A stretch of DNA of 64,000 bases from positions 13,558 to 77,557 of the forward strand of contig NZ_JARGNH010000013.1 of NCBI RefSeq assembly GCF_029213205.1, given 5' to 3'. The stretch is from Pseudooceanicola sp. Its GTDB lineage: Bacteria; Pseudomonadota; Alphaproteobacteria; Rhodobacterales; Rhodobacteraceae. Of this stretch, positions 32,599 through 50,428 are shown in pieces; the first letter of the stretch is position 1; every line of letters starts with the position of its first letter. The notes under the pieces were generated by a model, which saw only the letters and a program-made list of their open reading frames with translations, did no database searches and was not told the DNA's origin. The position numbers and the translations under genes are program-made.

Positions 32599-33239
32599 CC
32601 ACCGCCCGGGCCGCCGGGCTGATTGCCTGCCGCCGCTGCACCACGGTGTGGCCGGCAGGCACCGCCACCTGTGGGCGCTGTGGCCATGCCATCGCCTCAC
32701 GCGATCAGCTGTCGCTGCAAAAGGTCTGGGCCTGGTGGATTGTCGGCGTGGTTTGCTATGTCCCGGCCAATGTCCTGCCGATGCTGCAAACCCGCACCCT
32801 GGGCATGGTTGAAAACAACACCATCATCGGTGGCGCCGCGCAATTGGCGGATCATGGCAATTGGGGCGTGGCGATCGTGATCCTGGTCGCCTCGGTGATG
32901 ATCCCGATTGGCAAATTCGCGGTGATCGCGGCGCTGGCGATCAGCGTGCGGCATGGATCGGGAATGTCCCAGCTCAGGCGGCAACATCTGTTCGAACTGG
33001 TCGAATATATCGGGCGGTGGTCAATGATTGACGTTTTTGTCGTGGCATTGCTGTCGTCATTGGTGCAATTGGGTGCGTTGGCTGCCGTGGCACCGGGACC
33101 GGCAAGTCTGTATTTCGCGATGTCGGTGGTCTTTACCATGCTTTCTGCGCAGAGTTTTGACAGTCGGATGATCTGGGACCCGGACACAATTGTCAGCCGG
33201 GCCGACCGTTTGCGACGCCTACCGGGCCAGCCCGGATGA
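32595..33239 (+). CDS. pqiA: Paraquat-inducible protein A (second half-size copy)
   Basis: ACRRC...CGRCGH, YVPANVLPML, ASVMIPIGK, IGRWSMIDVFVV, FDSRMIWD. GTG start overlaps the previous stop (alternative ATG at 32577). Confidence 0.9.
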   Translation: MTTARAAGLIACRRCTTVWPAGTATCGRCGHAIASRDQLSLQKVWAWWIVGVVCYVPANVLPMLQTRTLGMVENNTIIGGAAQLADHGNWGVAIVILVASVMIPIGKFAVIAALAISVRHGSGMSQLRRQHLFELVEYIGRWSMIDVFVVALLSSLVQLGALAAVAPGPASLYFAMSVVFTMLSAQSFDSRMIWDPDTIVSRADRLRRLPGQPG

Positions 33240-35608
33240 GCGATCAGATCATCCCGCCGCAGTTGCCGGTCGAACCGGTGCGCCAGTCGATTCTGGAACG
33301 GGTCTCGATCGTCTGGATCATCCCGCTGATTGCATTGCTGATTGCGCTGGGCGTTGCCTGGCAATCCTATCAGAGCCGCGGGCCGGTGATCGAAATCGCC
33401 TTTGAAAACGCCAGTGGCGTGGTCGCCAACGAGACCGAGCTGCGCTATCGCGATGTCGCCGTTGGGGTGGTCGAGCGGGTGACCTTTACCGAATCGCTCG
33501 ACAAGGTGCTGGTGCGGGTGCGGGTGGATCGCGACGTTGCCCCCTATGTCGATGAGGATGCGCAATTCTGGGTGGTGCGCCCCAAGATTTCGACCGAAGG
33601 CATCGAGGGGCTGGACACCGTCCTGACCGGGGTTTTCATCGAAGGGCTGTGGAACACCAAGCCCGGCAACGCCCCGGCGCGGTTTGACGGGCTGAGCGAG
33701 GCGCCGCTGTCGCGCGACGGGCGCGACGGGCTGCGCATCGTGCTGCGTGCGGTCGATGACACCGGCCTGACCGAGAACGCGCCAATCGTCTATCGCGGCA
33801 TCGACGTGGGCCGGATTGGCCGCGCCCAGGTCTCTGCCGATGGCACCACGGTCGAGGCCGAGGCGATCATCTTCAAGCCCCATGACCGCCTGATCTCGAC
33901 CGCGACGCGATTCTGGGAAAGCTCTGGTTTCACCTTCAACCTGGGGCCGAGCGGTGCTGAGATCGACTTTTCCTCGCTGGCCTCGCTGATTTCCGGCGGC
34001 ATCAGCTTTTCCACCGTGGTGTCAGGCGGTGGCGTGGTGACCCCGGGCACCGTCTTTTCCGTTTACACCGACGAAGGCGCGGCCCGCGCCAGCGTCTTTG
34101 CCGAGGGCGACGGCGCGCCGCTGAACCTGACGGCGGTGTTTGCCGACAATGTCGCCGGTTTGACGGTGGATTCACCGGTCGATCTTGGCGGGGTCCGGGT
34201 TGGCCGGGTGACTTCGGTCAACGGGTTGGTCGATCCAGAGCGTTTTGGCGACCGGCAGGTGCGGCTGGCGGCGACGCTGGCGATCCGGCCTGGCCGTCTG
34301 GGCCTGCCCTCTGGCGAGGCTTCGCCCGAAGCGGCCCTGGAGTTTCTGGACAAGCAGGTCCGCGACGGGCTGCGGGCACGGCTGGTGACCGCCTCGATCC
34401 TGACCGGCGGGCTGAAGGTCGAATTGCTGATGGTCGAAGATGCCGAACCGGCGTTGCTGGACCAGACCGGGTCGCCGAACCCGGTGGTCCCGACCACCGA
34501 AAGCGAAATCGCCGATGTCTCGGCCACAGCCGAAGGTCTGTTCGAGCGGATCAATGCCCTGCCGATCGAGGATCTGATGAACGCCGCCATCGGCGCGCTC
34601 GATAATGTCAGCCGCTTTGTTGCCGGTGATGACCTGCGCAAGGTGCCCGGCGACCTCAGGGCGCTGCTTGGCGATGCCCGCGGGCTGATCGGCTCCGAGG
34701 CGGCGCAGGCGCTGCCCGGACAGTTGTCGGCAACCACCGAGGAATTGCGCCTGTTGGTCACCCGGCTGAACGAAGACCAAGCGGCGACACGGCTGCTGGC
34801 GGCGGTGGATGCGGTGAACGCGGCTGCGGCTTCGGCCACGGCGGCGGTGGCCGGGGTGCCGGCGCTGGTGACCCGTCTGGAAGCGGTGGCGGCCAAGGCG
34901 CAATCGCTGCCGCTGAACGAACTGGTGGATGAGGTCAACGCGCTGGCCCGCAACGCCAATGCGGTGATCGGCACCGAGGCGGCCAAGGCGATGCCTGGCG
35001 CCGTCACCGACAGCCTGAACAATCTCACCGCCTTCCTGAGCGACCTGCGCGATCGCAATGTCGCGGGCAGCGCCGCCGAGGCGCTGGTGGCTGTGCGTGA
35101 CGCGGCGGCGGATCTGTCGACCAGCGTCGCCGGGGTGCCGGAGCTGATCAAGAAGATCGACGCGGTGGCGGCCAAGGCCGAAACCCTGCCGCTGAACGAA
35201 TTGGCGGCGGATCTGGCCAAGCTGCTGGAAAGCGCCGATGCGCTGATTGGCACCGATGCGGCACGGCAATTGCCCGTCGACCTTTCGGCGGCTCTGGCAT
35301 CGCTGCGTCAGGTGCTGGACGACCTGCGCGATGGTGGCCTGATCGAGAACGCCAATCAGACCTTTGCCTCGGCCCGCGATGCCGCCGACAGCATCGCGGC
35401 GGCGTCCAGCGATTTGCCAGCGTTGATCCGCCGTGCCCAGGCGGTGCTCGGTCAGGCCTCGGACGTGCTGCGCGGCTATGATGCCTCCAAAGGCATCGGC
35501 AAGGACGCCGCGCAGGCGCTGCGCGAGGTTGAACGCGCCGCCGCCGCCGTGGGATCGCTGTCGCGGGCCCTGGAACGCAACCCGAATTCGCTGCTTTTCG
35601 GAAGGTAG
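33236..35608 (+). CDS. pqiB: PqiB-family MCE (MlaD-domain) intermembrane transport protein
   Basis: N-terminal TM (VWIIPLIA), three MCE-like domains, long Ala-rich helical C-terminus ending ERNPNSLLFGR. Confidence 0.92.
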   Translation: MSDQIIPPQLPVEPVRQSILERVSIVWIIPLIALLIALGVAWQSYQSRGPVIEIAFENASGVVANETELRYRDVAVGVVERVTFTESLDKVLVRVRVDRDVAPYVDEDAQFWVVRPKISTEGIEGLDTVLTGVFIEGLWNTKPGNAPARFDGLSEAPLSRDGRDGLRIVLRAVDDTGLTENAPIVYRGIDVGRIGRAQVSADGTTVEAEAIIFKPHDRLISTATRFWESSGFTFNLGPSGAEIDFSSLASLISGGISFSTVVSGGGVVTPGTVFSVYTDEGAARASVFAEGDGAPLNLTAVFADNVAGLTVDSPVDLGGVRVGRVTSVNGLVDPERFGDRQVRLAATLAIRPGRLGLPSGEASPEAALEFLDKQVRDGLRARLVTASILTGGLKVELLMVEDAEPALLDQTGSPNPVVPTTESEIADVSATAEGLFERINALPIEDLMNAAIGALDNVSRFVAGDDLRKVPGDLRALLGDARGLIGSEAAQALPGQLSATTEELRLLVTRLNEDQAATRLLAAVDAVNAAAASATAAVAGVPALVTRLEAVAAKAQSLPLNELVDEVNALARNANAVIGTEAAKAMPGAVTDSLNNLTAFLSDLRDRNVAGSAAEALVAVRDAAADLSTSVAGVPELIKKIDAVAAKAETLPLNELAADLAKLLESADALIGTDAARQLPVDLSAALASLRQVLDDLRDGGLIENANQTFASARDAADSIAAASSDLPALIRRAQAVLGQASDVLRGYDASKGIGKDAAQALREVERAAAAVGSLSRALERNPNSLLFGR
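34559..35464 (+). repeat. Three imperfect ~93-aa helical repeats in the PqiB C-terminal region
   Basis: Units start LPIEDL (34559), LPLNEL (34907) and LPLNEL (35186; 279 nt after the second), each followed by IG(S/T)(E/D)AA..(L/M)P and ending in a GVP/DLP..AV.AKA-like segment. Confidence 0.75.
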
Positions 35609-35614
35609 ATCGAC

Positions 35615-36184
35615 ATGCGCTATCCCATCCTGCACGCCGTTTTGGCCCTGTCCCTGCTCACCGCCTGTTCCGGTGAATCCTCGCAGCTCTATTCGGTGCC
35701 GCCCGCCGTGGTGAGCGGTGAAAAGATGCGGATTTCCTATCGAAGTGTTGAGCTGGTCGAGGTGTCACTGCCCGCCTATGCGGCCTCTGAAGAGATCCAT
35801 AGGCGTGGCAACGACGGTGCCCTGACCGCGCAGGGCGGGTTGCTCTGGTCGGATGCCCCGGCGCGGGCGGTGACCCTGGAACTGGCGCGCTATCTGGCGC
35901 AGATGACCAGCGCCCGGGTGGCGCCGGAGCCCTGGCCCTTTGCCGACAGGGCGGCGGTGCGGGTCGATGTAAGGGTCGAAGAGATGTTCGCCGACGGCGA
36001 CATGCTGTTCCGGATGAGCGGCCAGTATTTCGTCGCCCCCGATGCCGGTGGCCGAGACCGTTCGGGCCTGTTTTCCCTGAGCGCGCCGATCGCCCCGGGC
36101 GGCGGTGTTGCCGCGGTTGCCGCCGCGCGTGGCGAGGTGGTGCGCGATCTGGCCCGGGACATCGCCAAGGACGGGCTGCGCTGA
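35615..36184 (+). CDS. pqiC: PqiC-family auxiliary lipoprotein
   Basis: Lipobox LLTAC, VSLPAYA, WSDAPARAV; follows pqiB. Confidence 0.88.
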   Translation: MRYPILHAVLALSLLTACSGESSQLYSVPPAVVSGEKMRISYRSVELVEVSLPAYAASEEIHRRGNDGALTAQGGLLWSDAPARAVTLELARYLAQMTSARVAPEPWPFADRAAVRVDVRVEEMFADGDMLFRMSGQYFVAPDAGGRDRSGLFSLSAPIAPGGGVAAVAAARGEVVRDLARDIAKDGLR

Positions 36185-36427
36185 ACTGGCGAGGTGGCGG
36201 AAACTGGCCGATTTCCTTCGTATTCTGTTACAATTGTTTCGGTTTATTACGGGATTCGGGCCGCAAAGCCATACAGGCACCGGCGCCCAGCTACCCCGCG
36301 TCATTTCCCCTTTCGTGCATTGCATGACGCTTTTATGATCTCTAGAAAGCGTCCCATCGGTGACCGTAAGCCCCCTATGTTTTTGGCACGGCATTGCTAT
36401 TCAGAGACGCCCGTGTCGGAGGGAAGA

Positions 36428-37663
36428 GTGGACAAACCGAACCCCAAAAGTTCGAGCTTCGAAGGTTATGCGCGCCGCCGTTTTCGGATGGCCGGTTCTG
36501 CGCTTCTCGAAGGCGGACACCCCTGGTTTGCGCATACGGATACGATTGCCGATGCGTCGAATAAATTGGCGGGCGGATACGTCAGCTTTGCGCATTACGA
36601 TTACCTTGGCCTGCTCAAGGATCCGCGGATGACCGCCGCCGCCAAGGCGGCGATCGACGAATTCGGATCCGGCGCCGGGGCGTCGCGGCTGGTTGGTGGC
36701 GAACGCACCGCGCACCGCAAATTCGAAGACGACATGGCCGAGTTTCTGGGCGTTGGCGGGGTGCTGGCGCTGATCTCGGGCTATCTGACCAACATGTCGA
36801 TCATCAGCCATTTCATGGGTGCGCGCGATCTGGTCATCACCGATGACCTTGCGCATAATTCCATCGTGATGGGCGCCAAGGCTGGCAAGTTCAGCCATAT
36901 CAAATTCCGTCACAACGACCTCGATCATCTGGAGCATATCCTGACGACGGAACGGTCGAAATACGCCCGCGTTCTCATCGCGGCAGAGGGACTTTATTCG
37001 ATGGACGGCGACCTGGCCGACCTGCCTCGGCTGGTCGAGATCAAGGACCGTCACGACGCCTGGCTGCTGCTGGACGAGGCGCATTCCTATGGCGTTCTGG
37101 GCGACGCTGGCCGCGGCCTGTGCGAACGCTGCGGCGTCGATCCCGAACGGGTCGAATTGCAGATCGGCACCCTGTCGAAAAGCTTTGCCTCTTCGGGCGG
37201 TTTCATCGCGGCTTCGAAGGTGGTGATCGACTGGCTGCGGTTCACGCTGCCCTGTTTCGTCTATTCGGTGGGCCTGTCGCCCGCCACGCTGGCCACCGCG
37301 CAGACCGCATTGGACATTCTCAAGGCCGAGCCTGAGCGGGTGCGCGCCCTGCATCGCAACAGCCAGATGTTTCTGAGCAAGGCCCGCGCGGCGGGTCTGG
37401 ACACCCACACCGCGGTGGGCGAAGCGGTGATCCCGGTTCTGTTCCAGACGCAGGAGCAGACGCTTGCCATCTCGCAAATCCTGCTGGAGCAGGGGATCTA
37501 TGCGCCGCCCATCATCCATGTCGGCGTTCCGAAGGACCTGCCGCGCATTCGGTTCTTCATTTCCGCCGGCCATACAGAGGCCGACATCGACCGCGTGGTC
37601 ACGGCATTGGCGCAAGCCGCTGAAATGACCGCCGACCTCGTGGGCAAAGCTGTCGGAACATAA
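36428..37663 (+). CDS. PLP-dependent alpha-oxoamine synthase (serine palmitoyltransferase/BioF family; RkpG/WcbT-like subgroup)
   Basis: YDYLGL, GAGASRLVGG, HNSI, FRHND, EGLYSMDGD, DEAHSYG, GTLSK (PLP Lys), RIRFFI. GTG start at 36428 after GGAGG. The context has no biotin genes. Confidence 0.9.
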   Translation: MDKPNPKSSSFEGYARRRFRMAGSALLEGGHPWFAHTDTIADASNKLAGGYVSFAHYDYLGLLKDPRMTAAAKAAIDEFGSGAGASRLVGGERTAHRKFEDDMAEFLGVGGVLALISGYLTNMSIISHFMGARDLVITDDLAHNSIVMGAKAGKFSHIKFRHNDLDHLEHILTTERSKYARVLIAAEGLYSMDGDLADLPRLVEIKDRHDAWLLLDEAHSYGVLGDAGRGLCERCGVDPERVELQIGTLSKSFASSGGFIAASKVVIDWLRFTLPCFVYSVGLSPATLATAQTALDILKAEPERVRALHRNSQMFLSKARAAGLDTHTAVGEAVIPVLFQTQEQTLAISQILLEQGIYAPPIIHVGVPKDLPRIRFFISAGHTEADIDRVVTALAQAAEMTADLVGKAVGT

Positions 37664-37667
37664 CTCC

Positions 37668-38297
37668 ATGGCACAGATCCAACCTGTAACCCCGGCCGTG
37701 GTCAGGGGAACCATAGCGCTTCTTTTCGCGTTTGTGACGGCTGTTTTCACCCTCGCCGCCCCGGCGGCGCAGGCGGCGCCCAAGCTGAGCCTGCAATCGC
37801 GGCAGGTGACGGCGGCGATGCCGGTGTTCCGCAGCGAGTTCCCGCGGCCCAAGGACGGCGGCCAGGTGTTCTTTATCCAGCGCTCGCCGAATTCCAACAC
37901 GGTGGTCTATGCCGCGCGGGTGACGGGCGGTCAGCTGGACGCCAAATCGCCGGTCTCGGCCTATTGGCGGCGGTACAACACCGATGGCGCGGCCAAGGGG
38001 CTGAGCGGCATGGAACGCCGCCTGGCCTATGGCGTTTCGGCAAGTTCCAACGGCGACGGCACCTATGACGTCAGTTTCAAGGCGCTGCCGACGGTAAAAC
38101 CAATTTTGCGGGTAGAAAAAGGGCGCCCTGCGCTGTTTACCCGCATGGGAGATGAGGAGGCGCGTATGATTTACGCCTACCTCGATGTCGACGACGGCGG
38201 GCTTTTCCCGCGTGTCACCGGTCTAAAGCTGGTGGGGCGGCTCGCGTCGGGCAAATACGTGACTGAAACATATCGGGTTACGGGCGGAGAGCTCTGA
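37668..38297 (+). CDS. Exported DUF4833-like protein
   Basis: Signal peptide ending AQA; FFIQRSPNSNTVVY..., AYWRRY...G...LSGMERRLAYG matches the DUF4833 pattern as I recall it. Confidence 0.7.
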   Translation: MAQIQPVTPAVVRGTIALLFAFVTAVFTLAAPAAQAAPKLSLQSRQVTAAMPVFRSEFPRPKDGGQVFFIQRSPNSNTVVYAARVTGGQLDAKSPVSAYWRRYNTDGAAKGLSGMERRLAYGVSASSNGDGTYDVSFKALPTVKPILRVEKGRPALFTRMGDEEARMIYAYLDVDDGGLFPRVTGLKLVGRLASGKYVTETYRVTGGEL

Positions 38298-38299
38298 GA

Positions 38300-39412
38300 A
38301 TGACAATTGAAAAGAAAAACCCAATCCGGGTGGCTATTGCCGGGGTAGGGAACTGTGCCAGTTCACTCGTGCAGGGGGTGTCCTACTGCAAGCAGATGGG
38401 TGACAAGGCCATCGGGGTCAGCTTCCCCGACCTTGGCGGCTATGCGCCGTCGGACATCGAATTTGTGGCGGCGTTTGATATCGACGCGCGCAAGGTCAAT
38501 CGCCCGCTGGGCGAGGCGATCATGGCCGCGCCGAACTGCACCGCGACCTTTTGCGATGACGTAAGCGAGCATAAGGCCATGGTGCGCCGTGGTCCGGACC
38601 TGGACGGGTTCACCGCGTTCATGCGCAACCAGAACCCGGAGCGGGCCTTTCAGGGGTCGCCGGAACCGGCGCTGACCCAGGCCGAAGTGACCCAGGTGCT
38701 GAAGGATTCGAACGCCGAAGTCCTGATCATCTTCCTGCCGGTCGGCTCCATCGAGGCGGTCGAGTTCTATGTGCAATGTGCGCTGGACGCGGGCGTGTCG
38801 ATCGTCAACGGCATCCCGGTGTTCATCGTTTCCAACCCGGTCTGGGCGAAGAAATTCGAAGATGCCGGCATTCCGATCCTGGGCGACGATTTCAAGGCGC
38901 AGTTCGGGGCCACGATCATGCACCGCACGGTGGCGGCCTTGGCCGACATGCGCGGCGTTCAGATCGACCGGACCTATCAGTTGAACGTCGGCGGCAACAC
39001 CGACTTCCTCAACATGATGGACGGTGACCGGCTGGCAATGAAGCGCGAGTCGAAAACCGAAGCGGTGCAAGAGGCGATGGATGCCCGGTTGGCTGGCGAC
39101 GACATTCGTGTCGGCCCTTCGGATTATGTGCCATGGCTGAACGACCGCAAGGTCGCCTATATCCGCCTTGAGGGTCGCCTGTTCGGCGGTGTCGCAACCA
39201 ATGTCGAAATGCGGCTCGAGGTCGAGGACAGTCCGAATGCGGCGGCCGAGGCGCTGGCGGCGATCCGCTGTGCCAAGATCGCCCGCGAACGCGGGATGGC
39301 CGGTCCGGTCAAGGCGGCTTCGGCCTTTATCTTCAAGCATCCGCCGGAACAGATGGCCGATGAAGAGGCCTATCGGCAGATGGTCGCCTTTGCGGAAGGG
39401 ACCACCGGATAA
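38300..39412 (+). CDS. ino1: Myo-inositol-1-phosphate synthase (actinobacterial/archaeal type)
   Basis: GVGNCASSLVQG, GDDFKAQFGAT, YQLNVGGNTDFLNM, SKTEAVQ, GPSDYVPWLNDRK, LEVEDSPNAA. Confidence 0.95.
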   Translation: MTIEKKNPIRVAIAGVGNCASSLVQGVSYCKQMGDKAIGVSFPDLGGYAPSDIEFVAAFDIDARKVNRPLGEAIMAAPNCTATFCDDVSEHKAMVRRGPDLDGFTAFMRNQNPERAFQGSPEPALTQAEVTQVLKDSNAEVLIIFLPVGSIEAVEFYVQCALDAGVSIVNGIPVFIVSNPVWAKKFEDAGIPILGDDFKAQFGATIMHRTVAALADMRGVQIDRTYQLNVGGNTDFLNMMDGDRLAMKRESKTEAVQEAMDARLAGDDIRVGPSDYVPWLNDRKVAYIRLEGRLFGGVATNVEMRLEVEDSPNAAAEALAAIRCAKIARERGMAGPVKAASAFIFKHPPEQMADEEAYRQMVAFAEGTTG

Positions 39413-40230
39413 TGGCGCGGCCCGGGCAGCACGCCCCGGCCTGGATTTCAGGCGGGTCGAGCGGCATCGGGCTTGAGGTCGCGCGGCAACTCGCGGCCAA
39501 GGGTCGGCCAGTGGTGCTGATCGCGCGCAACGCTGAACGCTTGGCGGTCGCGGCGGGCTCGCTCCGCCGCGACGTGCCCGGCGCCGGGGTTGATTGCATC
39601 GCTTGCGATGTCACTGATCACGCCGCTGTCATGGCGGCTGTGGCCGAGGCGTTTGCGGCGCGCGGCGCCCCCGGCATTGTGGTGGCCAGCGCCGGTCTGG
39701 CCGAGCCGGGCCGGTTCCTCGATCAGGAGATCGGATCGCATCACGCCCAACTTTCGGTCAATTACACCGGCACTCTGAACCTGCTGCATGCGGCGGCCCC
39801 GCTGATGCGCGACGCCGGTGGCGGGCAGATGGCACTGATCTCTTCCGGCGCGGCGTTCTTTGGTATTTATGGGTATGGTGCGTATGCACCGTCGAAATTC
39901 GCGGTGCGGGCCCTGGCCGAGGTTTTGCGTGTCGAACTGGCGCCGCATGATATTTCGGTCACCCTCTGCTATCCGCCCGACACCGACACGCCGCAGCTGG
40001 CCGCCGAATCGCTGACCAAGCCCGAGGCGACCAAGATCATCAGCGAAGGCGGCGGGCTCTGGCAGCCCGGCGACGTCGCCCGGTTGACCATCCGTGGGAT
40101 GGAGCGTGGCCGCTTTGCGGTCACCCCGGGCTGGCAGATGACCGCGCTCTACTGGATCGCGCCGCTGATCTGGCCGATCATGCGCTGGCACCAGGGCCGG
40201 GTGGTTCGCAAAGTCGGTGCCGAAAAATGA
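39412..40230 (+). CDS. Short-chain dehydrogenase, 3-ketodihydrosphingosine reductase (KDSR/Tsc10)-like
   Basis: GGSSGIG, catalytic YAPSK, FAVRALAEVLRVEL, the KDSR-like YPPDTDTP, and a C-terminal amphipathic segment. TAATG overlap with ino1. Confidence 0.8.
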   Translation: MARPGQHAPAWISGGSSGIGLEVARQLAAKGRPVVLIARNAERLAVAAGSLRRDVPGAGVDCIACDVTDHAAVMAAVAEAFAARGAPGIVVASAGLAEPGRFLDQEIGSHHAQLSVNYTGTLNLLHAAAPLMRDAGGGQMALISSGAAFFGIYGYGAYAPSKFAVRALAEVLRVELAPHDISVTLCYPPDTDTPQLAAESLTKPEATKIISEGGGLWQPGDVARLTIRGMERGRFAVTPGWQMTALYWIAPLIWPIMRWHQGRVVRKVGAEK

Positions 40231-41114
40231 TCGCGGCCCAGTCGACCCTTGGCGTTGTCGCTGCGGCGCTGGCGCTGTTGTCGCTTGGCTATGCCATCGT
40301 TGGCGCGATGAGCATTGTGCCCGCCACCAGCAGCGGTGCCCGAAAAATCTGGCCAATTCTGAATATCGAGGCCGCAATTGTCGGGTCGGTCTGCACAGTG
40401 TTCGCCTTTGCCCCGGTCCTGATGCCGCTGGCCTGCCTGGGGCTGATCCTGCGGGTGGTCTGGGAGGCGGCAAGCGTGCGGTTTCGCCCCGGCGGTGCCG
40501 GGCTGGCGATTGTCTGGGCGACAGCGGCGGGGCTTGGCTTTCTGCTGCTGATCCTGCTGGTGCCCTGGGGCTGGGCCGTGGCGCTGCTGGCGCTGGCCTG
40601 GCTGGCGGCGATGGTCATCCGCCTGACCCGGCCCGAGGCAGCTGCGGCCGATCTGTTCAGCTTTCCGGTGTTGCCGATCCTGGCCTTTGGCGTCAGCTGC
40701 ACCGGCGGCAACGAGGCGCTGTTTCTGGCCGCCTGGATCGGGATCGAGACCTTTGACAGCTACGCGCTGCTGGCGGGCAAGGTGTTTGGCCGCCACAAGG
40801 CGTTTCCGGCTCTCAGCCCGAACAAGACGATCGAGGGGCTGGCAGGCGGCGCGATCATGCTGGTGCTCACTGCGGGTGGCGCGGCGTTGCTGCTGCCCTC
40901 GGTCGCTTCTGGTCAGGCCATCGCCTTTGCCCTGCTGATCGGCGTGTTCACGGTGATCGGCGATCTGACCGCCTCGCATCTGAAACGGCGGGCCGGGGTC
41001 AAGGATTACCCGCAGCTGGTGCCGCATCAGGGCGGGCTATTCGACATCTTTGATTCCTGGATCGCGACCGGTGGCGCCCTGGCTGTGGTGCTGGCCGTCG
41101 CCGGTCTGGCATAG
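40227..41114 (+). CDS. Phosphatidate cytidylyltransferase (CdsA/CTP_transf_1)-like membrane protein
   Basis: DSYALLAGKVFGRH, LSPNKTIEG, GDLTASHLKRRAGVKD, HQGGLFDIFDS (variant of GHGG.LDR.DS). ATGA overlap with the SDR. Confidence 0.88.
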   Translation: MIAAQSTLGVVAAALALLSLGYAIVGAMSIVPATSSGARKIWPILNIEAAIVGSVCTVFAFAPVLMPLACLGLILRVVWEAASVRFRPGGAGLAIVWATAAGLGFLLLILLVPWGWAVALLALAWLAAMVIRLTRPEAAAADLFSFPVLPILAFGVSCTGGNEALFLAAWIGIETFDSYALLAGKVFGRHKAFPALSPNKTIEGLAGGAIMLVLTAGGAALLLPSVASGQAIAFALLIGVFTVIGDLTASHLKRRAGVKDYPQLVPHQGGLFDIFDSWIATGGALAVVLAVAGLA

Positions 41115-41124
41115 GAGCGGCCGG

Positions 41125-42255
41125 ATGCGTCCCTACCTGCGCCTTGTCCTGGGTCCGACCCTCACCGTCACGCTGTCGATTCTGGCGCTGGTCGAGATCG
41201 TCTTTCTGGCCGAGGAATTCACCGGCCTGCTGGAAACCATCGTCAGCACCGGCGGATCGGCGTTTGACCTGATCCGGCTGCTGTCCTGGAAGATCCCCGA
41301 AATCCTGGATCTGGCCCTGCCAATCGCGATCTTGGTCGGGGTTCATACCGCAGTCGGCCGGTCGCGCCGCGACGGCGAATTGGTGGTGCTCTCGGCGGCG
41401 GGGGCGCCGTCCTGGGGGCTGGTGTCCGGGTTCCTGCTGGTTGGACTGCTCGGGGCCTGCCTCAGCTTTGCGATCAGCGGCTTCATCGCCCCGGCCTCGA
41501 GCTTTGCCCAGCGTCTGGCGCTGCATGAAATGACCGTTTCGCATATTGCGGAGCAGATTTCGGCACCGGGTGAAAGCGGCACCACGCTGGTCACCAATGG
41601 CACCGATTTCGTCGCCACCGGCACCCCGGACGGGCCGCCATCGCTGATGGTGCGCCGTCCGCCGGGATCGAAACCCTGGCGCTATGCCTTTGCCGGGGAT
41701 TGGGAGGTCTTGGGCCCCGATGTCGAGGGCAACGGCACCTTCCGGTTGGGTCAGGTTTCAGCCTTTGGCGATTTGGAGCGGCTGGATGGCAAAACCGCCG
41801 AGGCGCAGCTGAACCGGATGGCAGCGGGAAGCGTCAAGGTCGGTTTCTCGATGGAGGATGTGCTGCCGGTGCTCGACAATGTGCCGCGCCGTCAGGAGCG
41901 GCCGGTGCTGCCGCTGACATTGGGGATCTTCAGCTTTGCTGCCGTCAACACCGCGATTGACCCGCAGCGTCTGGCGCTGACCATTGGGCGTTCGATGCTG
42001 GTGCCGGCGGCGGTGTTGCTGGCGTTGATGGCCGTCTGTGGCGGCACCGTGCCCGGGGTCCGGGCGGCGGCGTTTCCGATGGCGCTGATCGGGCTGGTGC
42101 TGACCGATCTGGTCGCCCGTGCCTGGCTCGGTGGGTTCAGCACGCCGAGGGCGCTGACTCTGGCCACCCTGTTCGTGGCGGTGGCGGCGGTCGCGGTGCC
42201 GATCTCGGCCTTGCGCCTTGCGGGTGAAGCGCTGATCCGGCCGGGGCGCGGATAA
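41125..42255 (+). CDS. LptF/LptG-family permease (divergent paralog)
   Basis: TM1, LPIAILVG...GRSRRDGELVVLSAAG, periplasmic beta-rich region, three C-terminal TMs. AGGAG RBS before ATG 41125. Confidence 0.82.
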   Translation: MRPYLRLVLGPTLTVTLSILALVEIVFLAEEFTGLLETIVSTGGSAFDLIRLLSWKIPEILDLALPIAILVGVHTAVGRSRRDGELVVLSAAGAPSWGLVSGFLLVGLLGACLSFAISGFIAPASSFAQRLALHEMTVSHIAEQISAPGESGTTLVTNGTDFVATGTPDGPPSLMVRRPPGSKPWRYAFAGDWEVLGPDVEGNGTFRLGQVSAFGDLERLDGKTAEAQLNRMAAGSVKVGFSMEDVLPVLDNVPRRQERPVLPLTLGIFSFAAVNTAIDPQRLALTIGRSMLVPAAVLLALMAVCGGTVPGVRAAAFPMALIGLVLTDLVARAWLGGFSTPRALTLATLFVAVAAVAVPISALRLAGEALIRPGRG

Positions 42256-43382
42256 TGGCGTTGCGCAGCCTCACCGGGCGGGCGATGCGGCTGGCATTGC
42301 GCGAACATTTCACCGCCGCGCTGTCGGTGCTGACCGCGTTGATCTTTGTCGCGCTGATGATCGATTTCGCCGACAGCTTTGACAGCCTCCGCGCCGCCGC
42401 CGAGGGCAAGTCTCTGTCGCTGGTGCTGGGCAAATACACCCTCTATCGGCTGACCGATATCGTGTCGCGGTTGCTGCCGGTGGCCACCTTGCTGGGCGCA
42501 TTCCTGGCCGAAGTCCGGCGCCGGGCGTTGCTGGAAACCGTTATCCTGGCGGCCTCGGGTGTGTCGGTTGCGCCGACCCTGGTGGCGCTGGGCCTGCTTG
42601 GCGGGCTGAGCGGTGCCCTGCAATGGAAGCTGGAGCGTGACTGGCGCCCGGCGGCGGTGTTCGCGCAGGTCGATTTGGGCGCTGGAGGCTATGCCGATCG
42701 CTATGCGCGCGGCTTGACCAGCGATCAGCATTGGTTCGTGCAGGACGATGCCGCGATTGTCGGCCGGGTGCTGGTCGGGTCCCGCCCTGAGCTGCGCGAG
42801 GCCAGCTATTTCATCGGTCTGCAGGGGCGCGGCTTTTCCCAGCTGGTCCGGGCCGAACGGGTGTATCCGCTGGGTGACGGCGATTGGCGTTTCGAAAACG
42901 CCGAGATCTGGGAGACGACAGCCAAAGGCAGCCTCGTCGGCCGCCCGGTCGCGGTGCTGGATCTGCCGTTGTGGATTGTGCCCGACCGGCTGGAATTTCT
43001 GCGCCCGTCACCGTTCTACCTGCCGCAGGATGTGCTGAACGCCCGGGCCACAGCGGCGCCGGAGGATCCCAAGATCGCCGCGACCCAATGGCGGCGCTAT
43101 ACTGCCTGGTTATTGCCGGGGTTGTTTGCCTTTCTCGGCGCCAGCCTGGCGATGACCGGGTTCCGGGGCCGGGTGACACGGATGCCGATCCTGATCGGCA
43201 TGGCCTTTGGCGGCTATCTGGTGACCCTGTCGCTCAAGGTGTTCTTTGCCCTGGGCGAACTCGGGGCGCTGTCGGCCCCGATCGCGGCGCTGGCGCCGCT
43301 GGGCCTGGCGCTGGGTCTCGGCGCCGGGCTGCAATGGTTGCTGAACAGAGAGGCGCGTGGCCGCCGTTTGCCGCTTGGATAA
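42255..43382 (+). CDS. LptF/LptG-family permease (divergent paralog)
   Basis: LLPVATLLGA...ETVILAASGVS, periplasmic region (A....GDGDWRFEN), three C-terminal TMs. TAATG overlap with the previous gene. Confidence 0.82.
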   Translation: MALRSLTGRAMRLALREHFTAALSVLTALIFVALMIDFADSFDSLRAAAEGKSLSLVLGKYTLYRLTDIVSRLLPVATLLGAFLAEVRRRALLETVILAASGVSVAPTLVALGLLGGLSGALQWKLERDWRPAAVFAQVDLGAGGYADRYARGLTSDQHWFVQDDAAIVGRVLVGSRPELREASYFIGLQGRGFSQLVRAERVYPLGDGDWRFENAEIWETTAKGSLVGRPVAVLDLPLWIVPDRLEFLRPSPFYLPQDVLNARATAAPEDPKIAATQWRRYTAWLLPGLFAFLGASLAMTGFRGRVTRMPILIGMAFGGYLVTLSLKVFFALGELGALSAPIAALAPLGLALGLGAGLQWLLNREARGRRLPLG

Positions 43383-43398
43383 TCCCGCCGCAGCCTGG

Positions 43399-44157
43399 TC
43401 AGATCGCCTGGGCGCGTCCGGGTGCCCGCGGCAGCCCGGCGCTGGCGAGGGGCCAGACCCGCATATAGGCATCCGCCAGCATGGTTTCGTCGTCAACCTC
43501 GGCCCAGGCCAGATCGTCGATCAGCGGGCAGGTATAGCTGTGACCGGCGGCATGCGCGACCAGCCCGCTTTCGTAATCGGCCTTGATATCGGCGCCGATC
43601 AGCTTTTGCGCGGTGGCGCGAAAGGCGTCCAGGTCGGTCGCGGCGAGGGCGGAGATCCCGACCAACTCGCCACGATGCGCCTCGTCCCGGTGATCGGCGC
43701 GCTTCGACATGTCGATCAACTGGCTGTCGGCTTTGGTCCAGACATAGACCTCGTCCCCGGCGCTGGTTGGCCCGGACAGGACCAGCCCCGAAGTGCCGCG
43801 CAGCATCGGATCGAGCGCCCGGGGCTCATACATGATGTCAGATTCCAGGATCACCACCGGGCCGCTCAGCCCCGCCAGCCCGCATCCCAGCGACCACAGG
43901 CTGCCCGAGCGGTGGTAATCGGCGTTGTGCACCAGCTCGACCCCCGGCGTCGCCGAAAATTCCTGCCGGTAGGCTTCGGCCAGATGGCCGGTGACGATCC
44001 GCACCTTGGAAATGCCGCGATCGGCAAGGTGCAGCACCGAGGCGCGCACCAGCGGCATCCCGTCCAGCGCGATCATCCCCTTGGGTGTCAGCCGCCCACG
44101 GGCGCCCATCCGCACCCCCAAACCGGCCGCCACGATCACTGCTGTGCACTCGGTCAT
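43399..44157 (-). CDS. NTP transferase, phosphocholine/inositol-1-phosphate cytidylyltransferase (LicC/IPCT)-like
   Basis: AVIVAAGLGVRMG...PKGM, NADY..SGSLWSL, LESDIMY, GELVGIS, WAEVDD. ATG at 44157 after GGAG. Confidence 0.88.
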   Translation of the reverse strand: MTECTAVIVAAGLGVRMGARGRLTPKGMIALDGMPLVRASVLHLADRGISKVRIVTGHLAEAYRQEFSATPGVELVHNADYHRSGSLWSLGCGLAGLSGPVVILESDIMYEPRALDPMLRGTSGLVLSGPTSAGDEVYVWTKADSQLIDMSKRADHRDEAHRGELVGISALAATDLDAFRATAQKLIGADIKADYESGLVAHAAGHSYTCPLIDDLAWAEVDDETMLADAYMRVWPLASAGLPRAPGRAQAI

Positions 44158-44267
44158 AGTCAACTTCTCCGGCGCGCTGAATCTGCAGCGCGCATGTTAC
44201 CAATGTTCCGTAAATTTGTTACAGCACCGGAATGCCTGCGCCAAGCTAAGAACGGAGTAACGATCGA

Positions 44268-44981
44268 GTGACTGAATCTCAAACCCCAAGTGTCGGTGCC
44301 TTGGTGCGCAATTATCTGCACAGTCCGAAACATGATGAGGAACTGCATGGCAATTGGGTGATGGCGCTGCTGCATCGTTGGCCGGGATTTCTCCTGAGCG
44401 CGCTGTTCTTGCGCGCCGGGATCAGTGCCAATGCGGTGACGCTGACCGGTGCGACGTTTGCCCTGATATTGCCGCTCATGGCCTGGCTGCTGCCGGTACC
44501 TCTGGCCGCCTGGACAGTGCTGGTGCTGGGCAGTTTGGTTATCACGCTGGATTGCTGCGATGGTGATATCGCGCGTTGGACCGGCAGCGCATCAAGGCAT
44601 GGCGCCCAACTGGACTTCGTCGTTGATATGGCGCTGTGGGGTCTCTTGTACGGATCTCTCGGGTTGCTCGCTGACCGGGCGGGTGTCGGTGACGGGGGCG
44701 CTGTCGTGACAGGCGGCTGGACCGCGCTGGCGCTGGGGTCGGCCTGGTTGCGGTTGCTGGCACGGGTGATCAACGATGCCGCTGGCGGCGGCCAGACCGT
44801 GGGTCAAGGCCCCTGGACCGTGACTACCGCCCTGACCGCCTTCGTTGCCGGGTTGTCGGGCGCCTTGCCGTTTCTGGCACCGCTGGTGATCTGGCACCCG
44901 GCGCTGATCTGGCTGTTGGCGCTTTATGCCATTGCCGATGTTGTCAACGCGCTGTGGCGGATGATGGTGCGGGCCGGTTGA
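44268..44981 (+). CDS. CDP-alcohol phosphatidyltransferase family protein (copy 1)
   Basis: ISANAVT and the family motif DCCDGDIARWTGSASRHGAQLDFVVD. Confidence 0.9.
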   Translation: MTESQTPSVGALVRNYLHSPKHDEELHGNWVMALLHRWPGFLLSALFLRAGISANAVTLTGATFALILPLMAWLLPVPLAAWTVLVLGSLVITLDCCDGDIARWTGSASRHGAQLDFVVDMALWGLLYGSLGLLADRAGVGDGGAVVTGGWTALALGSAWLRLLARVINDAAGGGQTVGQGPWTVTTALTAFVAGLSGALPFLAPLVIWHPALIWLLALYAIADVVNALWRMMVRAG

Positions 44982-46093
44982 TGCGGATTGTGCATGTCAG
45001 CCCCTATCCGATGGCCCGGCCCGGCGGGGTGCAGAGCAATATCCGGGATCTCTGCGCCTGGTTGGAGCGCCAGGGCCATGAGGTGCGGATTCTGGCCCCG
45101 GATGCGCAAGATGACGCCGCCACCCGCCGCATCGCCCTCGGCCATGCGCGCGAGGTGACGCTGCATGGCACCGAGTTCGAGTTCAGCTATGCCGGGCCAC
45201 TGGCGCTGTCACGCGCGGCGCGCGGGTTGCGCGACTGGGGGGCGGAACTGGTGCATCTGCACACCCCATGGACCCCGATGATGCCCTGGCAGCTGTGGCG
45301 CAAGCTGCGCCTGCCCAGCGTCGCCACCTTTCACGCCACCTTGCCTGATATCGACCCGGCAACCGCCAAGCCGGGGCTGGAGGACCGCTTCATCGCCCGC
45401 GCGGCGCGCTATTACCACCGCCGGTTGGCGGCGTTGATCGTGCCGTCTTCGGCGCCCCAGGCACAATGGGCGCGGCTGGGGGTGACGCCGTTGCCGCAGA
45501 TCCTGCCGCCGACCATCAACCTGGCCGATTGGCGCGCCGCCGACCCTGGCACAGCCCGGCGCGCGGGGCCGTTCCGGGTGATCTATCTGGGCCGGTTCGA
45601 GGCGCGCAAAGGTGTCGATGTGCTGCTCAGCGCCTGGGCGCAACGCCCGGCAGCGTTGCGCGACGCTGAACTGGTCCTGGCCGGGCGCGGTGCCCTGCCG
45701 GGCCCGCTGCCCGAAGGGGCGCGGCTGGTGTCCGACCCGGACCGGGCCGCTGCGATTCGGCTGGTGGCCGAGGCCGATGTTTCGGTGGCCCCGGCGGGCT
45801 GGGGCGAAAGCTTTGGCCTGGTGCTGATCGAGGCGATGGCGGCGGGCACGGTGCCGGTGGCGGCGGCCAATGCGGGCTATGCCACGGTGATGACCGGGGC
45901 CGGACGCGATCTGCTGTTCGAACCGGGCGATGCCGCCGGGCTGGCGGCGCGGCTGGCGGAGTTGGCAACCGGGCCCGCGCGGCTGGCCAGGCTGGCCGAC
46001 TGGGGCCGTGCCCATGCGCTCGACTACGATGTCAGCCGGGTCGGACCGGCCTATCTGCGGGTTTACGAGGCGGCTCTGGAGACGCGTTCATAG
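44981..46093 (+). CDS. GT4 glycosyltransferase, PimA-like
   Basis: SPYPMARPGGVQSNI (cf. the PimA PGGVQSH loop), HLHTP, ATFH, YLGRFEARKG, ESFGLVLIEAMAAG. TGATG overlap with the previous gene. Confidence 0.88.
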   Translation: MRIVHVSPYPMARPGGVQSNIRDLCAWLERQGHEVRILAPDAQDDAATRRIALGHAREVTLHGTEFEFSYAGPLALSRAARGLRDWGAELVHLHTPWTPMMPWQLWRKLRLPSVATFHATLPDIDPATAKPGLEDRFIARAARYYHRRLAALIVPSSAPQAQWARLGVTPLPQILPPTINLADWRAADPGTARRAGPFRVIYLGRFEARKGVDVLLSAWAQRPAALRDAELVLAGRGALPGPLPEGARLVSDPDRAAAIRLVAEADVSVAPAGWGESFGLVLIEAMAAGTVPVAAANAGYATVMTGAGRDLLFEPGDAAGLAARLAELATGPARLARLADWGRAHALDYDVSRVGPAYLRVYEAALETRS

Positions 46094-47228: not shown

Positions 47229-48776
47229 ATGAGCCAGGGAGAGCTGATCATCGCCGCCGATTTCGGCACGTCGGGCGTCAAGCTGGGTGTGGTGGGTGAA
47301 GGCATGTCGCTGTTGGCCCGCCGGGTCGAACACTATCCAATCCAGCTCGCCTCGGGCGGGGTGGCCGAACAGCGCCCCGAAGATTGGTGGGCGGCGTTGG
47401 CCCGTGGTCTGTCGGCGCTTGAGGCCGAGCTTCCCGGCACCCTGTCACAGGCCGGTGCGCTGGTGTTCTCGGCGCAGATGTGTGGCGTCACCTGTGTCGA
47501 TGCCGACGGTGTGCCGCTGCGACCCTGCATCATCTGGCAGGACACGCGCGCCGGCGATATTGCCCGCAGGCTGGTCGGTGGTTTCCCGGAGGCGTTGGGA
47601 TACAACCTGAACCGCCTGGCGCGCTGGATCCGGATTGCCAATGGCGCCCCGGCCAAGAACGGCATGGATCCAATCGCCAAGATGCATTTCCTGATGCGCA
47701 ACGAGCCGGAGATCTGGGCGAAGACCCACCGCACCCTGGATGTGAAGGATTGGCTGATCCACCGCGCCACCGGCCGGTTTGTCACCACCGCCGACAGCGC
47801 CAATGTGACCTGGCTGATGGACACCCGCCCGGGCCGTGAAGGCTGGTCCAAGGCTCTGTCAAAGATGACGGGCATGCCGCTGGACAAGTTGCCCGAGATT
47901 GTTGATGGCAGCGATGTGGTCGGGGTTCTGACCCCGCGTGCCGCCGCCGAGCTGGGCCTGCCCGCCGATCTGCCGGTGGTCGCCGGCGGCGGCGATGTCA
48001 CCGCGACGGCGCTGGGATCAGGCGCGGTGGCCGACGGGGCGCTGCATCTCTGCATCTCGACTTCGGCTTGGGTCAGCGGCTTTTTTCCGCGCCGGATTCT
48101 CAGTGTGCCCAGCTCTTTCGCGACGGTGGCCAGCAGTGCGGGCAATCGCCCGCTGCTGATCGCCACCCAGGAAAGCGCCGGATCGGCTCTGGAATGGGTG
48201 GCGCGGCTGATGGGCTATGGCGCGCAGCCGGATCTGGTCGCCGCCTTTGGCGATCCTGGCGACTGGCGCGAGGATGATCCGTTTCTGATCCCGTGGTTTG
48301 CGGGCGAGAGGGTGCCGGTCGACAATGACACGCTGCGCGGGGTGATTCACGGGCTGTCGATTGACCATGACCGCAACGCGGTCGCGCGCGCCGCCATCGA
48401 AGGCGTCGCGCTGAACCTGCGCTGGGCCCATGAGGCGGTGGCCAAGAAGCCGGGAGTCAAGCTTGACGGGCCCTTGCCGCTGGTCGGCGGCGGCGCCACC
48501 AACCCGGTGCTGGCGCAATGCGTTGCCGACGCGCTGAACCGTGAGGTGACCACCGGCGAAAGCCAGTTCGCCGGGGTGCTGGGCACCGCCGCGCTGGCCG
48601 CCCCGGCGATGGGCTGGGATCCGGATGTCTGGCATGCGGCGGCGCGGCTGTCCGACCGGGTGCAGGCGCGGTATCTGCCGTTGCCGGACCGTCACGAGAT
48701 GATCGAACGTCGCTATGCCCGTCTGCGCAAGCTGCGGAAAACCATGGTGAAAACCTTTCCTGGGAGCGCGGCATGA
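47229..48776 (+). CDS. FGGY-family carbohydrate kinase (xylulokinase-like)
   Basis: ADFGTSGVK, EQRPEDWW, IIWQDTRA, GGGDVTA, FAGERVP, AAIEGVA, VGGGATN. Confidence 0.9.
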   Translation: MSQGELIIAADFGTSGVKLGVVGEGMSLLARRVEHYPIQLASGGVAEQRPEDWWAALARGLSALEAELPGTLSQAGALVFSAQMCGVTCVDADGVPLRPCIIWQDTRAGDIARRLVGGFPEALGYNLNRLARWIRIANGAPAKNGMDPIAKMHFLMRNEPEIWAKTHRTLDVKDWLIHRATGRFVTTADSANVTWLMDTRPGREGWSKALSKMTGMPLDKLPEIVDGSDVVGVLTPRAAAELGLPADLPVVAGGGDVTATALGSGAVADGALHLCISTSAWVSGFFPRRILSVPSSFATVASSAGNRPLLIATQESAGSALEWVARLMGYGAQPDLVAAFGDPGDWREDDPFLIPWFAGERVPVDNDTLRGVIHGLSIDHDRNAVARAAIEGVALNLRWAHEAVAKKPGVKLDGPLPLVGGGATNPVLAQCVADALNREVTTGESQFAGVLGTAALAAPAMGWDPDVWHAAARLSDRVQARYLPLPDRHEMIERRYARLRKLRKTMVKTFPGSAA

Positions 48777-49399
48777 TTGATGGGTTGATCAAACATATTC
48801 TTGATCCGTTGTGGGAAAAGGCCTCGACTCCGCTGGTGCGGGCCGGTTTGACGCCGAACCAGGTGACGTTGACCGGGCTGGCGTTGATCATCGCCGGATC
48901 CGGGCTTTACCTCTGGCACCGCCTGGATCTGGTGTTCGGACTGTGGCTGGCGGTGTCCTATGCCTTTGACGCGCTCGACGGTGCGGTGGCGCGACGGCGC
49001 GACATGCGATCAAAGGCGGGCGGCTATCTGGATGCGATGGTCGACCGCTATCAGGAATTGATCGTTCTGGGGGCGATTGCCTGGGTGCATGATCTGTGGC
49101 CGCTGGCGCTGTTGACCTTCGCCGGGTCGGTCATCACCTCTTATGCCAAGGCGCGCACCGCGCTTGAGGCGGATGTTTCGAACGATGGCTGGCCGGAATT
49201 GTTCGAACGGCTTGAGCGGATCATCTACACCTGCGTGCTGCTGGTCGCCGCCGGGCTGGTGCCGGAGGGCTGGGTTGCCTCCGTGATGGTCTGGGGCATG
49301 GCGCTGTTCGCGGCGCTGACCAACCTGACCGCCCTGCAACGTGGGGTCAGGGCGTTTGGGTTGCTGGCGCAGATCGACCGTGAAGGTGGCGCAGAATAA
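48773..49399 (+). CDS. CDP-alcohol phosphatidyltransferase (copy 2), phosphatidylinositol-phosphate synthase-like
   Basis: LTPNQVT, DALDGAVARRRDMRSKAGGYLDAMVDRYQE, SYAKART and FERLER, as seen in actinobacterial/archaeal PIP/AIP synthases. ATGA overlap with the kinase. Confidence 0.88.
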   Translation: MIDGLIKHILDPLWEKASTPLVRAGLTPNQVTLTGLALIIAGSGLYLWHRLDLVFGLWLAVSYAFDALDGAVARRRDMRSKAGGYLDAMVDRYQELIVLGAIAWVHDLWPLALLTFAGSVITSYAKARTALEADVSNDGWPELFERLERIIYTCVLLVAAGLVPEGWVASVMVWGMALFAALTNLTALQRGVRAFGLLAQIDREGGAE

Positions 49400-50171
49400 T
49401 CCGCGCGAAATCCACCGCATGCAAAAGCGCCAGGTTCAGCACCAGGATCAGCACCACCACCTCGGTCAGCACATAGGCCTGATACAGCGACGGCGTGTGG
49501 TATGAGGTGTCTTTCAGGATGAACAAGGCCAGATAGGTCAGGGTCGCGATGATCGCAGCCACACAGGCGACGATCCGCAGTCGCGCCGCCGTCGGTTCGA
49601 TCAGCCCGCGCTGCCGCATGCTCTGATCGTGACGGATCAGGGTCAGCACCGCGAGATTGGTCATCAGCCCGACGATCTGCGCCAAGGCGGCAGAGATGAA
49701 CAACATGTAACTGCCGATCATATGGATGCTGTTGGCATGGCCAATCCGGAACACCGACAGCAGGATCAGCCCGAGGGCGATCGGCGGTTGCAGCACGATA
49801 TAGAAGTTCGACCAGATTTGCAGCCGTCTGCGATCGGCGACATCGGCGGCCGGGGTGGCATGGACGGAGCGGGTATAGAGCATCGCGACGATGATCCCGA
49901 GGACGAACAGCTCGACCGCGACCAGGGCGATCCAGAGCGAAAACGGGTCGCCGATGCTCGGCTCGGAAATCGCGCGGCTGATGGTTGGCGGCTTGCGCAG
50001 CGATTCTTCGGGAAACAGGGCGATCCATTCGATTCGGGCGCGAATGATCCAATAGGCAACGATGGGCGAGGCCGACAGGCTGAGCGCCAGGCCAATCGCC
50101 GCCAAGGGCCAGGCCATATGTGCCGGTTTCGGCGAACTGGCCTCGGCCAGGGTTGAATGATTTGCCTGCAT
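49347..50171 (-). CDS. Six-TM membrane protein resembling the Frag1/DRAM/Sfk1 (PGAP2/Cwh43 N-terminal) family
   Basis: Order of features: TM1, PTISRAISEP..F, TM2, GLILLSVF...IHMIGSYMLF, RLRIV, TEVVV, terminal DF. This follows the DRAM/PGAP2 pattern by eye only. Start at 50171 or 50117. Confidence 0.6.
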   Translation of the reverse strand: MQANHSTLAEASSPKPAHMAWPLAAIGLALSLSASPIVAYWIIRARIEWIALFPEESLRKPPTISRAISEPSIGDPFSLWIALVAVELFVLGIIVAMLYTRSVHATPAADVADRRRLQIWSNFYIVLQPPIALGLILLSVFRIGHANSIHMIGSYMLFISAALAQIVGLMTNLAVLTLIRHDQSMRQRGLIEPTAARLRIVACVAAIIATLTYLALFILKDTSYHTPSLYQAYVLTEVVVLILVLNLALLHAVDFARIILRHLHGRSAPATQTP

Positions 50172-50428
50172 GGTGCTGGCTCCTGTCCGATTGCCCATTC
50201 GCAGATGCGTTTTGCGACAAACCGGTGGCCAACAAAACCCCATCTGGGCGAGATCTCGCCGCCTATTTGTAATATTGGGAAGTGTTTTGGCCGGATGGCG
50301 ACGTTGGCCGCGCTGCCGGCTGCCCACAGGCTTGCAATCCGTTCCCTTGCTTGTCAAACCCCGGCCTGATGACGGGCGCCGCCCGGGGCCTGAACCCGCT
50401 GGCGCCGACCGGAACAGGAGTTTGGGCT

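Follow-up and report, generated by a model that had tools for sequence, protein, structure and literature searches.

A divergent LptF/LptG-type permease pair embedded in a putative inositol glycolipid cluster of Pseudooceanicola sp.

The LptF'/LptG' pair and the Lpt genes of its genome

A stretch of 64,000 nt from Pseudooceanicola sp. (Rhodobacteraceae; assembly GCF_029213205.1, contig NZ_JARGNH010000013.1, positions 13,558 to 77,557 of the forward strand), hereafter the window, harbors two adjacent genes for permeases of the LptF/LptG family, called here LptF' and LptG' (F' and G'). The genome holding the window (on contig C26) measures 3.69 Mb and is 95.6% complete, and by LptG' its nearest named relatives are Pseudooceanicola species, with 67-76% identity. 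The two genes are:

41125-42255, + strand: LptF', 376 aa, divergent LptF-type permease with six transmembrane (TM) helices, TM3 and TM4 being separated by a periplasmic beta domain
42255-43382, + strand: LptG', 375 aa, divergent LptG-type permease

Both proteins pass the cut-off (27.9 bits) of the Pfam family LptF_LptG (PF03739), LptF' with 72.5 bits over profile positions 2-130 only and LptG' with 83.1 bits over positions 2-349. NCBIfam models tell them apart: LptF' scores 70 bits as LptF and 49 as LptG, LptG' 71 bits as LptG and 25 as LptF. Since these values are far under the equivalog cut-offs (230 for TIGR04407 and 240 for TIGR04408, respectively), we regard the two as divergent paralogs. 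Direct comparison with the sequences of solved LptF and LptG structures returned weak matches only, across TM1-3. The ATG of LptF' at 41125 is preceded by GGAG and lies 10 nt past the stop codon of a cdsA-like gene, while the TAA stop of LptF' and the ATG of LptG' share 1 nt. With reading frames uninterrupted in more than 20 genomes, F' and G' are an intact, translationally coupled gene pair of the LptF/LptG family.

Four LptF/G-family genes are found in the genome. The housekeeping pair lies at C11:351732-353944 (195 and 190 bits), adjoined by lptD (C11:349774-350886), and the sole LptB-class match is at C49:5679-6386 (361.6 bits; NCBIfam cut-off 240) with lptC and lptA just upstream, and lptB, lptC, lptA and lptD were each found in one copy. 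Of approximately 95 ATP-binding cassette (ABC) ATPase hits in the genome, the next best on the LptB model reaches 166 bits and adjoins a second nucleotide-binding domain (NBD). No LptB-type ATPase is encoded in the window, whose two ABC ATPase domains score 109 bits (nosF) and 48 bits (an exporter). The same composition recurs in three further Rhodobacteraceae genomes bearing the cluster described below, each with two housekeeping and two cluster LptF/G genes and one LptB. Given that lpxC is present, the genome makes lipopolysaccharide (LPS).

An initial annotation, made from the letters of the window, had described two divergent LptF/G-family permeases beside a cdsA-like gene, away from the housekeeping lptFG context and with no lptB, lptC or lptA in the window. 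The reading frames, the Pfam matches and sub-equivalog scores, and the positions of the C11 and C49 genes bear out each of these points, and the pair in the window is not the only lptFG of the genome.

AlphaFold2 models were built from ortholog alignments (26 for G', 17 for F'), and both proteins show the same predicted layout of three helices, a beta domain and three further helices. The LptG' model (predicted local distance difference test, pLDDT, 90.9) superposes over its full length on LptG chains and more poorly on LptF chains; with 6mit_G, the TM-scores are 0.79/0.83 over 367 columns at a root-mean-square deviation of 3.7 Å and 18% identity. Its jellyroll is well conserved and modelled with confidence. 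For the LptF' model (pLDDT 77.8), the best PDB matches are LptF chains, namely 5x5y_F and 9dok_F (E ~1e-9, TM-score ~0.53).

In E. coli the acidic coupling-helix residues engaging LptB are E84 of LptF and E88 of LptG, and solved complexes show this contact. An acidic residue is kept in both window proteins: E85 of LptF' is found in 17/17 orthologs, and E94 of LptG' is Glu in 23/26 and Asp in 3/26. In the alignment, the two residues fall on the S-E-L motif found in housekeeping LptF/G and in LptF/G encoded at Spt loci.

Lineage, distribution and relatives of the pair

A search of 1.84 billion representative proteins with a G' profile returned 96 matches at E<=1e-30 and 1235 at E<=1e-3, so few that most ordinary LptG proteins went undetected. 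Within its own genome, the profile did not hit LptG at E<=1e-3 and scored LptF at only 20.9 bits. G' and its profile matches form one clade (Shimodaira-Hasegawa-like approximate likelihood ratio test, SH-aLRT, 100), whose sister is a clade of housekeeping LptG together with LptG encoded beside the canonical alphaproteobacterial Spt. F' sequences group apart as well, in a clade (99) next to those of housekeeping LptF (100) and Spt-locus LptF (99). Named members of the wider clade comprise Afipia, Pinisolibacter, Phreatobacter, and Mesorhizobium and Flavobacteriaceae metagenome-assembled genomes (MAGs).

The Spt-locus pairs in these trees are LptFG genes next to canonical Spt (NF047603), taken from 400 alphaproteobacterial genomes. 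Ten of the genomes were checked, of which nine carry a sole LptFG pair and one a pair plus one extra gene, with no confirmed second pair; the Spt-locus pairs are thus of the Sphingomonas type and not of the two-pair Caulobacter type, and Caulobacter LptF2/G2 are not in the trees. An approximately unbiased (AU) test rejects a single clade of G' and Spt-locus LptG (delta lnL 229, p-AU 8.7e-8), for a group defined after the tree was seen. The F'G' lineage appears to be separate from, and rarer than, the sampled Spt-locus pairs, and its non-orthology to Caulobacter LptF2/G2 is suggested indirectly.

To examine the distribution, 300 genera of the family were sampled with a single genome apiece. A G' homolog is present in 9 of them (33-41% identity) and missing from 291, and it is not found in a 99%-complete genome of the same genus. 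All nine loci share the order synthase, DUF4833, Ino1, short-chain dehydrogenase (SDR), CdsA-like, F', G', followed by (nucleoside triphosphate (NTP) transferase), (CDP-alcohol transferase 1), a family 4 glycosyltransferase (GT4), (Stealth), FGGY kinase, CDP-alcohol transferase 2, a Frag1-like gene and an ABC exporter; a few of them miss one gene or stop at a contig end. The order recurs in genome G1043 and in named genomes of Shimia, Pseudopelagicola and a 'Rhodobacter sp.' MAG, extending overall over more than 15 Rhodobacteraceae genera, and samples of 400 genomes each from the class and the phylum yielded only clusters of this window type. F' and G' are a patchy accessory pair, inherited only together with the lipid cluster. 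In no window-type cluster is an NBD for the pair encoded.

Three types of distant F'/G'-clade members sit in other glycolipid clusters, each with an ABC ATPase close upstream of the pair. At locus L045 (a Rhodobacteraceae MAG) the order is an LPG-synthase-TM-like gene, LptB', F' and G', neighbored by Ino1, a synthase, an SDR, a CDP-alcohol transferase and glycosyltransferases; on the LptB model (cut-off 240) this LptB' reaches 273.6 bits, and it shares 46% identity with the LptB of the window genome. Locus L147 (a metagenome contig) reads Ino1, ABC ATPase, F, G, ketosynthase, dehydratase, a family 2 glycosyltransferase (GT2), CDP-alcohol transferase, PgpA, deacetylase and GT4. The Afipia type (L164/L165) combines three GT4 genes, a Lipid_DES desaturase, an ABC ATPase whose NBD is 52% identical to the window genome's LptB, a radical SAM gene, F and G with a synthase that shares 54% identity with the oxoamine synthase of the window cluster and with an SDR. 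All three ATPases find their best match in the window genome in the housekeeping LptB, by a wide margin over the second-best hit for L045 and the Afipia type and by a smaller one for L147 (41-43% identity; 179 vs 145 bits).

Some features of these relatives deserve mention in their own right. The LPG_synthase_TM gene heading the LptB'-F'-G' operon (L045:7627-8703, - strand) resembles the MprF flippase domain, and a homolog of such a gene (BT_1521) lies next to Bacteroides inositol-lipid clusters (Heaver et al., PMC9246714). The enzyme set of L147:6913-19644 (Ino1, CDP-alcohol transferase, PgpA, GT4, polysaccharide deacetylase) recalls early synthesis of the glycosylphosphatidylinositol (GPI) anchor, that is, formation of GlcNAc-phosphatidylinositol (GlcNAc-PI) and its de-N-acetylation. 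The Afipia-type desaturases (L164:4963-5994, L165:4963-5952), combining Lipid_DES and FA_desaturase, are of the sphingolipid delta-4-desaturase type, which is known mainly from eukaryotes.

As distant relatives carry an LptB-like ATPase close upstream, the F'G' family would run on an LptB-type motor; with no such ATPase in the window-type cluster and one LptB in the genome, the housekeeping LptB is the motor available here. Taken together with the predicted folds and the Caulobacter precedent discussed below, this leads us to propose, with a probability of roughly 0.6, that F'G' form the membrane part of a second LptB2FG-type extractor, dedicated to the glycolipid of the cluster and driven by the housekeeping LptB.

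The surrounding putative glycolipid cluster

F' and G' close an operon of seven genes, all on the + strand, with junctions of -4 to +10 nt. The five genes ahead of them, and those following, are:

36377-37663, + strand: Spt-like alpha-oxoamine synthase, first gene of the operon (Pfam Aminotran_1_2; start probably Met62 of the open reading frame (ORF) at 36194)
37668-38297, + strand: DUF4833 protein, conserved in the cluster (Pfam PF16117, 83 bits)
38300-39412, + strand: myo-inositol-3-phosphate synthase, Ino1 (Pfam Inos-1-P_synth; TIGR03450 406 bits, under the cut-off of 638)
39412-40230, + strand: SDR, candidate 3-keto reductase (Pfam adh_short, 133 bits)
40227-41114, + strand: CdsA-like cytidylyltransferase, directly upstream of F' (Pfam CTP_transf_1, 120.7 bits)
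43399-44163, - strand: NTP transferase, candidate inositol-phosphate cytidylyltransferase (Pfam NTP_transf_3; G+C content at third codon positions, GC3, 0.84)
44268-44981, + strand: CDP-alcohol phosphatidyltransferase, conserved in the cluster
44954-46093, + strand: GT4 glycosyltransferase, conserved in the cluster
47229-48776, + strand: FGGY sugar kinase, cluster gene
48773-49399, + strand: CDP-alcohol transferase resembling phosphatidylinositol-phosphate (PIP) synthase (archaetidylinositol-phosphate synthase 118 bits, PIP synthase 81 bits, both under their cut-offs)
51594-53345, + strand: ABC half-transporter with transmembrane domain and NBD, candidate flippase for the cluster lipid (Pfam ABC_membrane and ABC_tran; TIGR01194 321 bits, above cut-off)

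The best NCBIfam scores of the oxoamine synthase are 331 bits for BioF, 284 for Kbl and 284 for Spt, each under its cut-off. We place its start probably at 36377 rather than 36194 because homologs begin at the equivalent of residues 47-87, which leaves approximately 190 bp behind a pqiC-like gene, room for a promoter; a promoter/terminator scan gave fewer sites than shuffled sequence and was uninformative. Homologs of this synthase (42-57% identity) occur in Methylocapsa, Methylocella, Hyphomicrobium, Roseibium, Pannonibacter, Albimonas and planctomycetes (Mariniblastus, Pirellulaceae) at loci L041-L109, often with an SDR nearby and with no F'G' within 10 kb.

Downstream of G', the next real gene is the convergent minus-strand NTP transferase, weakly similar to inositol-phosphate cytidylyltransferase, its stop codon 16 nt from that of G'. 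A + strand ORF at 43357-44271, which might have extended the operon, is spurious: it has no family match and a GC3 of 0.67, against 0.84 for the ORF on the minus strand. The operon thus terminates at G', and F'G' would share a transcript with the five genes ahead of them (oxoamine synthase through CdsA-like) alone. Co-transcription with lipid synthesis genes, part of the initial annotation, is in this way supported by the gene arrangement on the upstream side and would not extend beyond G'.

Cluster genes run as far as the ABC half-transporter, spanning approximately 16 kb with F'G' included, and a nos operon follows from 53740. The half-transporter is conserved with the cluster (L022, L024-L026, L029, L163), and a Stealth hexose-phosphate transferase is also encoded. 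Two further conserved members are a Frag1/DRAM/Sfk1-family membrane protein (49347-50483, - strand) and a 424-aa protein without family match (50282-51556, + strand; 60% identical in G1043); their ORFs overlap by approximately 200 nt, so one of the starts is probably mis-set. None of the scanned genes was recognised as a ceramide synthase, with no search aimed at bCerS, CerR, ACP or Cpg genes. The product is probably a lipid that has a sphingoid-type base, a subsequently glycosylated inositol-phosphate head group, or both.

Directly upstream lie pqiABC genes (31963-36184), which we considered as a periplasmic lipid route and set aside as a mere neighbor, since they accompany the cluster in 0/9 related loci. 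Here pqiA consists of two half-size ORFs in different frames, 31963-32598 with the zinc ribbon and first PqiA domain and the frame of 32025-33239 with the second, so that the gene is split or else carries a frameshift; behind it come pqiB (790 aa, three MCE domains) and the pqiC-like lipoprotein gene.

Proposed export of the cluster lipid and comparison with known systems

Caulobacter crescentus indeed uses a second LptFG set in its sphingolipid locus, as the initial annotation had stated. LptF2 and LptG2 (CCNA_01214/01213) co-purify, both mutually and with the sole LptB, and their deletion is tolerated only in the absence of synthesis of the sphingolipid or of its anionic head group; binding of LptC2 could not be shown (Uchendu, Isom & Klein, bioRxiv 10.64898/2026.04.12.717747). 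LptC2/F2/G2 had already been annotated by Olea-Ozuna et al. (PMC11324152). Sphingomonads, reported to be without key LPS-synthesis enzymes, nevertheless keep the whole Lpt bridge, presumably for sphingolipids (bioRxiv 10.64898/2026.04.12.717747). A literature search on the cluster in Rhodobacteraceae found nothing.

In the mechanism we propose, the cluster lipid would be built on the cytoplasmic face of the inner membrane and flipped, probably by the ABC half-transporter at 51594-53345. F'G' would then draw it out of the leaflet on the periplasmic side, with the housekeeping LptB dimer as their energy source, and their periplasmic beta-jellyroll domains would hand it on in the direction of the outer membrane, the simplest route being the resident LptC-LptA-LptDE bridge. 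Substrate, LptB sharing and the route beyond the inner membrane are what we infer; the initial annotation, which had the paralogs extracting the glycolipid of the cluster for outer-membrane delivery and possibly borrowing LptB, had read the locus in the same way, and the comparative evidence supports that reading.

Several observations weigh against it. Between genera, F' is approximately 30% and G' approximately 37% identical, as compared to 50-70% for the cluster enzymes, pointing to faster evolution of the pair. The oxoamine synthase remains under every NCBIfam Spt cut-off (217-284 bits vs 500-670), and the coupling-helix Glu is absent from some distant clade members, distant G' relatives included. 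No lptC2 or lptA2 is present, nor does the window hold an lptC or lptA. The periplasmic domain of F' is a low-confidence part of the model (pLDDT 43-73) and the least conserved part of the protein, with 21% identity to the window protein vs 40% for TM1-3; it also varies in length among orthologs. In LptB2FG, the counterpart of this domain docks LptC, which makes use of the housekeeping bridge uncertain.

Extraction or flipping of the lipid by F'G' without LptB, whether with another ATPase, with the ABC exporter of the cluster or without ATP, would account for the lack of an NBD in all window-type clusters and for the distant G' relatives devoid of the coupling Glu, and the many other ABC ATPases of the genome offer candidates. 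We consider it unlikely, as the NBDs upstream of the relatives are of LptB type and not of other types, an acidic residue occupies the coupling position in 17/17 F' and 26/26 G' orthologs, the genome has no orphan LptB-like paralog (the next-best hit sits beside a second NBD) and LptB of Caulobacter binds F2G2 (bioRxiv 10.64898/2026.04.12.717747). A similarly low probability is given to F'G' extracting the lipid and bypassing LptC-LptA-LptDE, with an acceptor such as a DUF4833 carrier, vesicles, or a polysaccharide or protein that would receive the lipid as its anchor. The poorly conserved, length-variable periplasmic domain of F', the missing LptC2, the presence of DUF4833 and Stealth proteins in the cluster and the unproven LptC2 binding in Caulobacter would fit such a bypass; the conserved, confidently modelled G' jellyroll and the complete bridge of the sphingomonads speak for a route over the bridge.

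That F'G' instead export LPS, for instance a modified form under some condition, and reside in the cluster by chance is suggested by family membership and by the LPS synthesis of the genome. It is highly improbable for a pair found only with the cluster, absent from the same-genus genome and most sampled genera, so distant from housekeeping LptF/G that the G' profile misses the genome's own LptG, and with relatives that also sit in glycolipid clusters. Finally, fast evolution relative to the neighboring enzymes could be a sign of a decaying, functionless remnant, a notion we give almost no credence in view of intact frames, conserved motifs, translational coupling and high-confidence folds.

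A broader proposal is one that we hold tentatively, at somewhat under even odds: F'G' would represent a third, old Lpt-type lineage (LptB'F'G') for sphingoid/inositol glycolipids resembling the eukaryotic glycosyl inositol phosphorylceramides (GIPC) and GPI, whose own ATPase was lost in Rhodobacteraceae; two outer-membrane lipids without chemical kinship would then depend on a single LptB motor and possibly on a single LptC-A-DE bridge. The private LptB has apparently been lost in the Rhodobacteraceae F'G' lineage. The accessory-LptFG idea itself is already published for Caulobacter; new here is a separate, rare LptF'G' lineage tied to Spt-like/inositol glycolipid clusters.

Movement of non-LPS lipids to the Gram-negative outer membrane is largely an open question, with Caulobacter LptF2G2 sharing LptB as the first experimental case, in 2026. 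The present locus adds a second, phylogenetically separate accessory LptFG family, whose neighboring genes (Spt-like, inositol, GT4) tie it to another lipid chemistry, and provides an export handle on an uncharacterised, putative inositol glycolipid of marine Rhodobacteraceae. Lineages with a private LptB' (Afipia type, L045 type) and apparent borrowers of the housekeeping LptB make a natural comparison, by which it becomes testable whether one ATPase can drive two extractors, how the LptFG cavity chooses its substrate and whether the Lpt bridge is a general glycolipid highway.

Compared to Caulobacter LptF2/G2, F'G' are likewise a second pair besides the housekeeping one, placed in a locus that has an Spt-like enzyme, has no lptB and is predicted to make an envelope lipid other than LPS, in a genome with a single LptB, and share the predicted LptF/G fold; the window locus differs in its Ino1, CdsA-like, CDP-alcohol transferase, GT4, FGGY kinase and ABC exporter genes, and no LptC2 is seen. 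With housekeeping LptB2FG(C) of E. coli, Enterobacter, Vibrio and Acinetobacter (6mhu, 6mit, 6mjp, 8frl), they have in common the six TM helices, the periplasmic beta-jellyroll and a heterodimeric-type gene pair with the coupling-helix Glu, whereas they are only 12-19% identical, are not beside lptD and constitute a dispensable, patchy accessory pair. Unlike the uncharacterised LptB'F'G' sets of the Afipia (L164/L165), L045 and L147 types, the window-type cluster is without an LptB-like ATPase of its own, yet its pair belongs to the same F'/G' clades and is embedded, as theirs are, with an Spt-like synthase and/or Ino1, CDP-alcohol transferase and GT4 enzymes.

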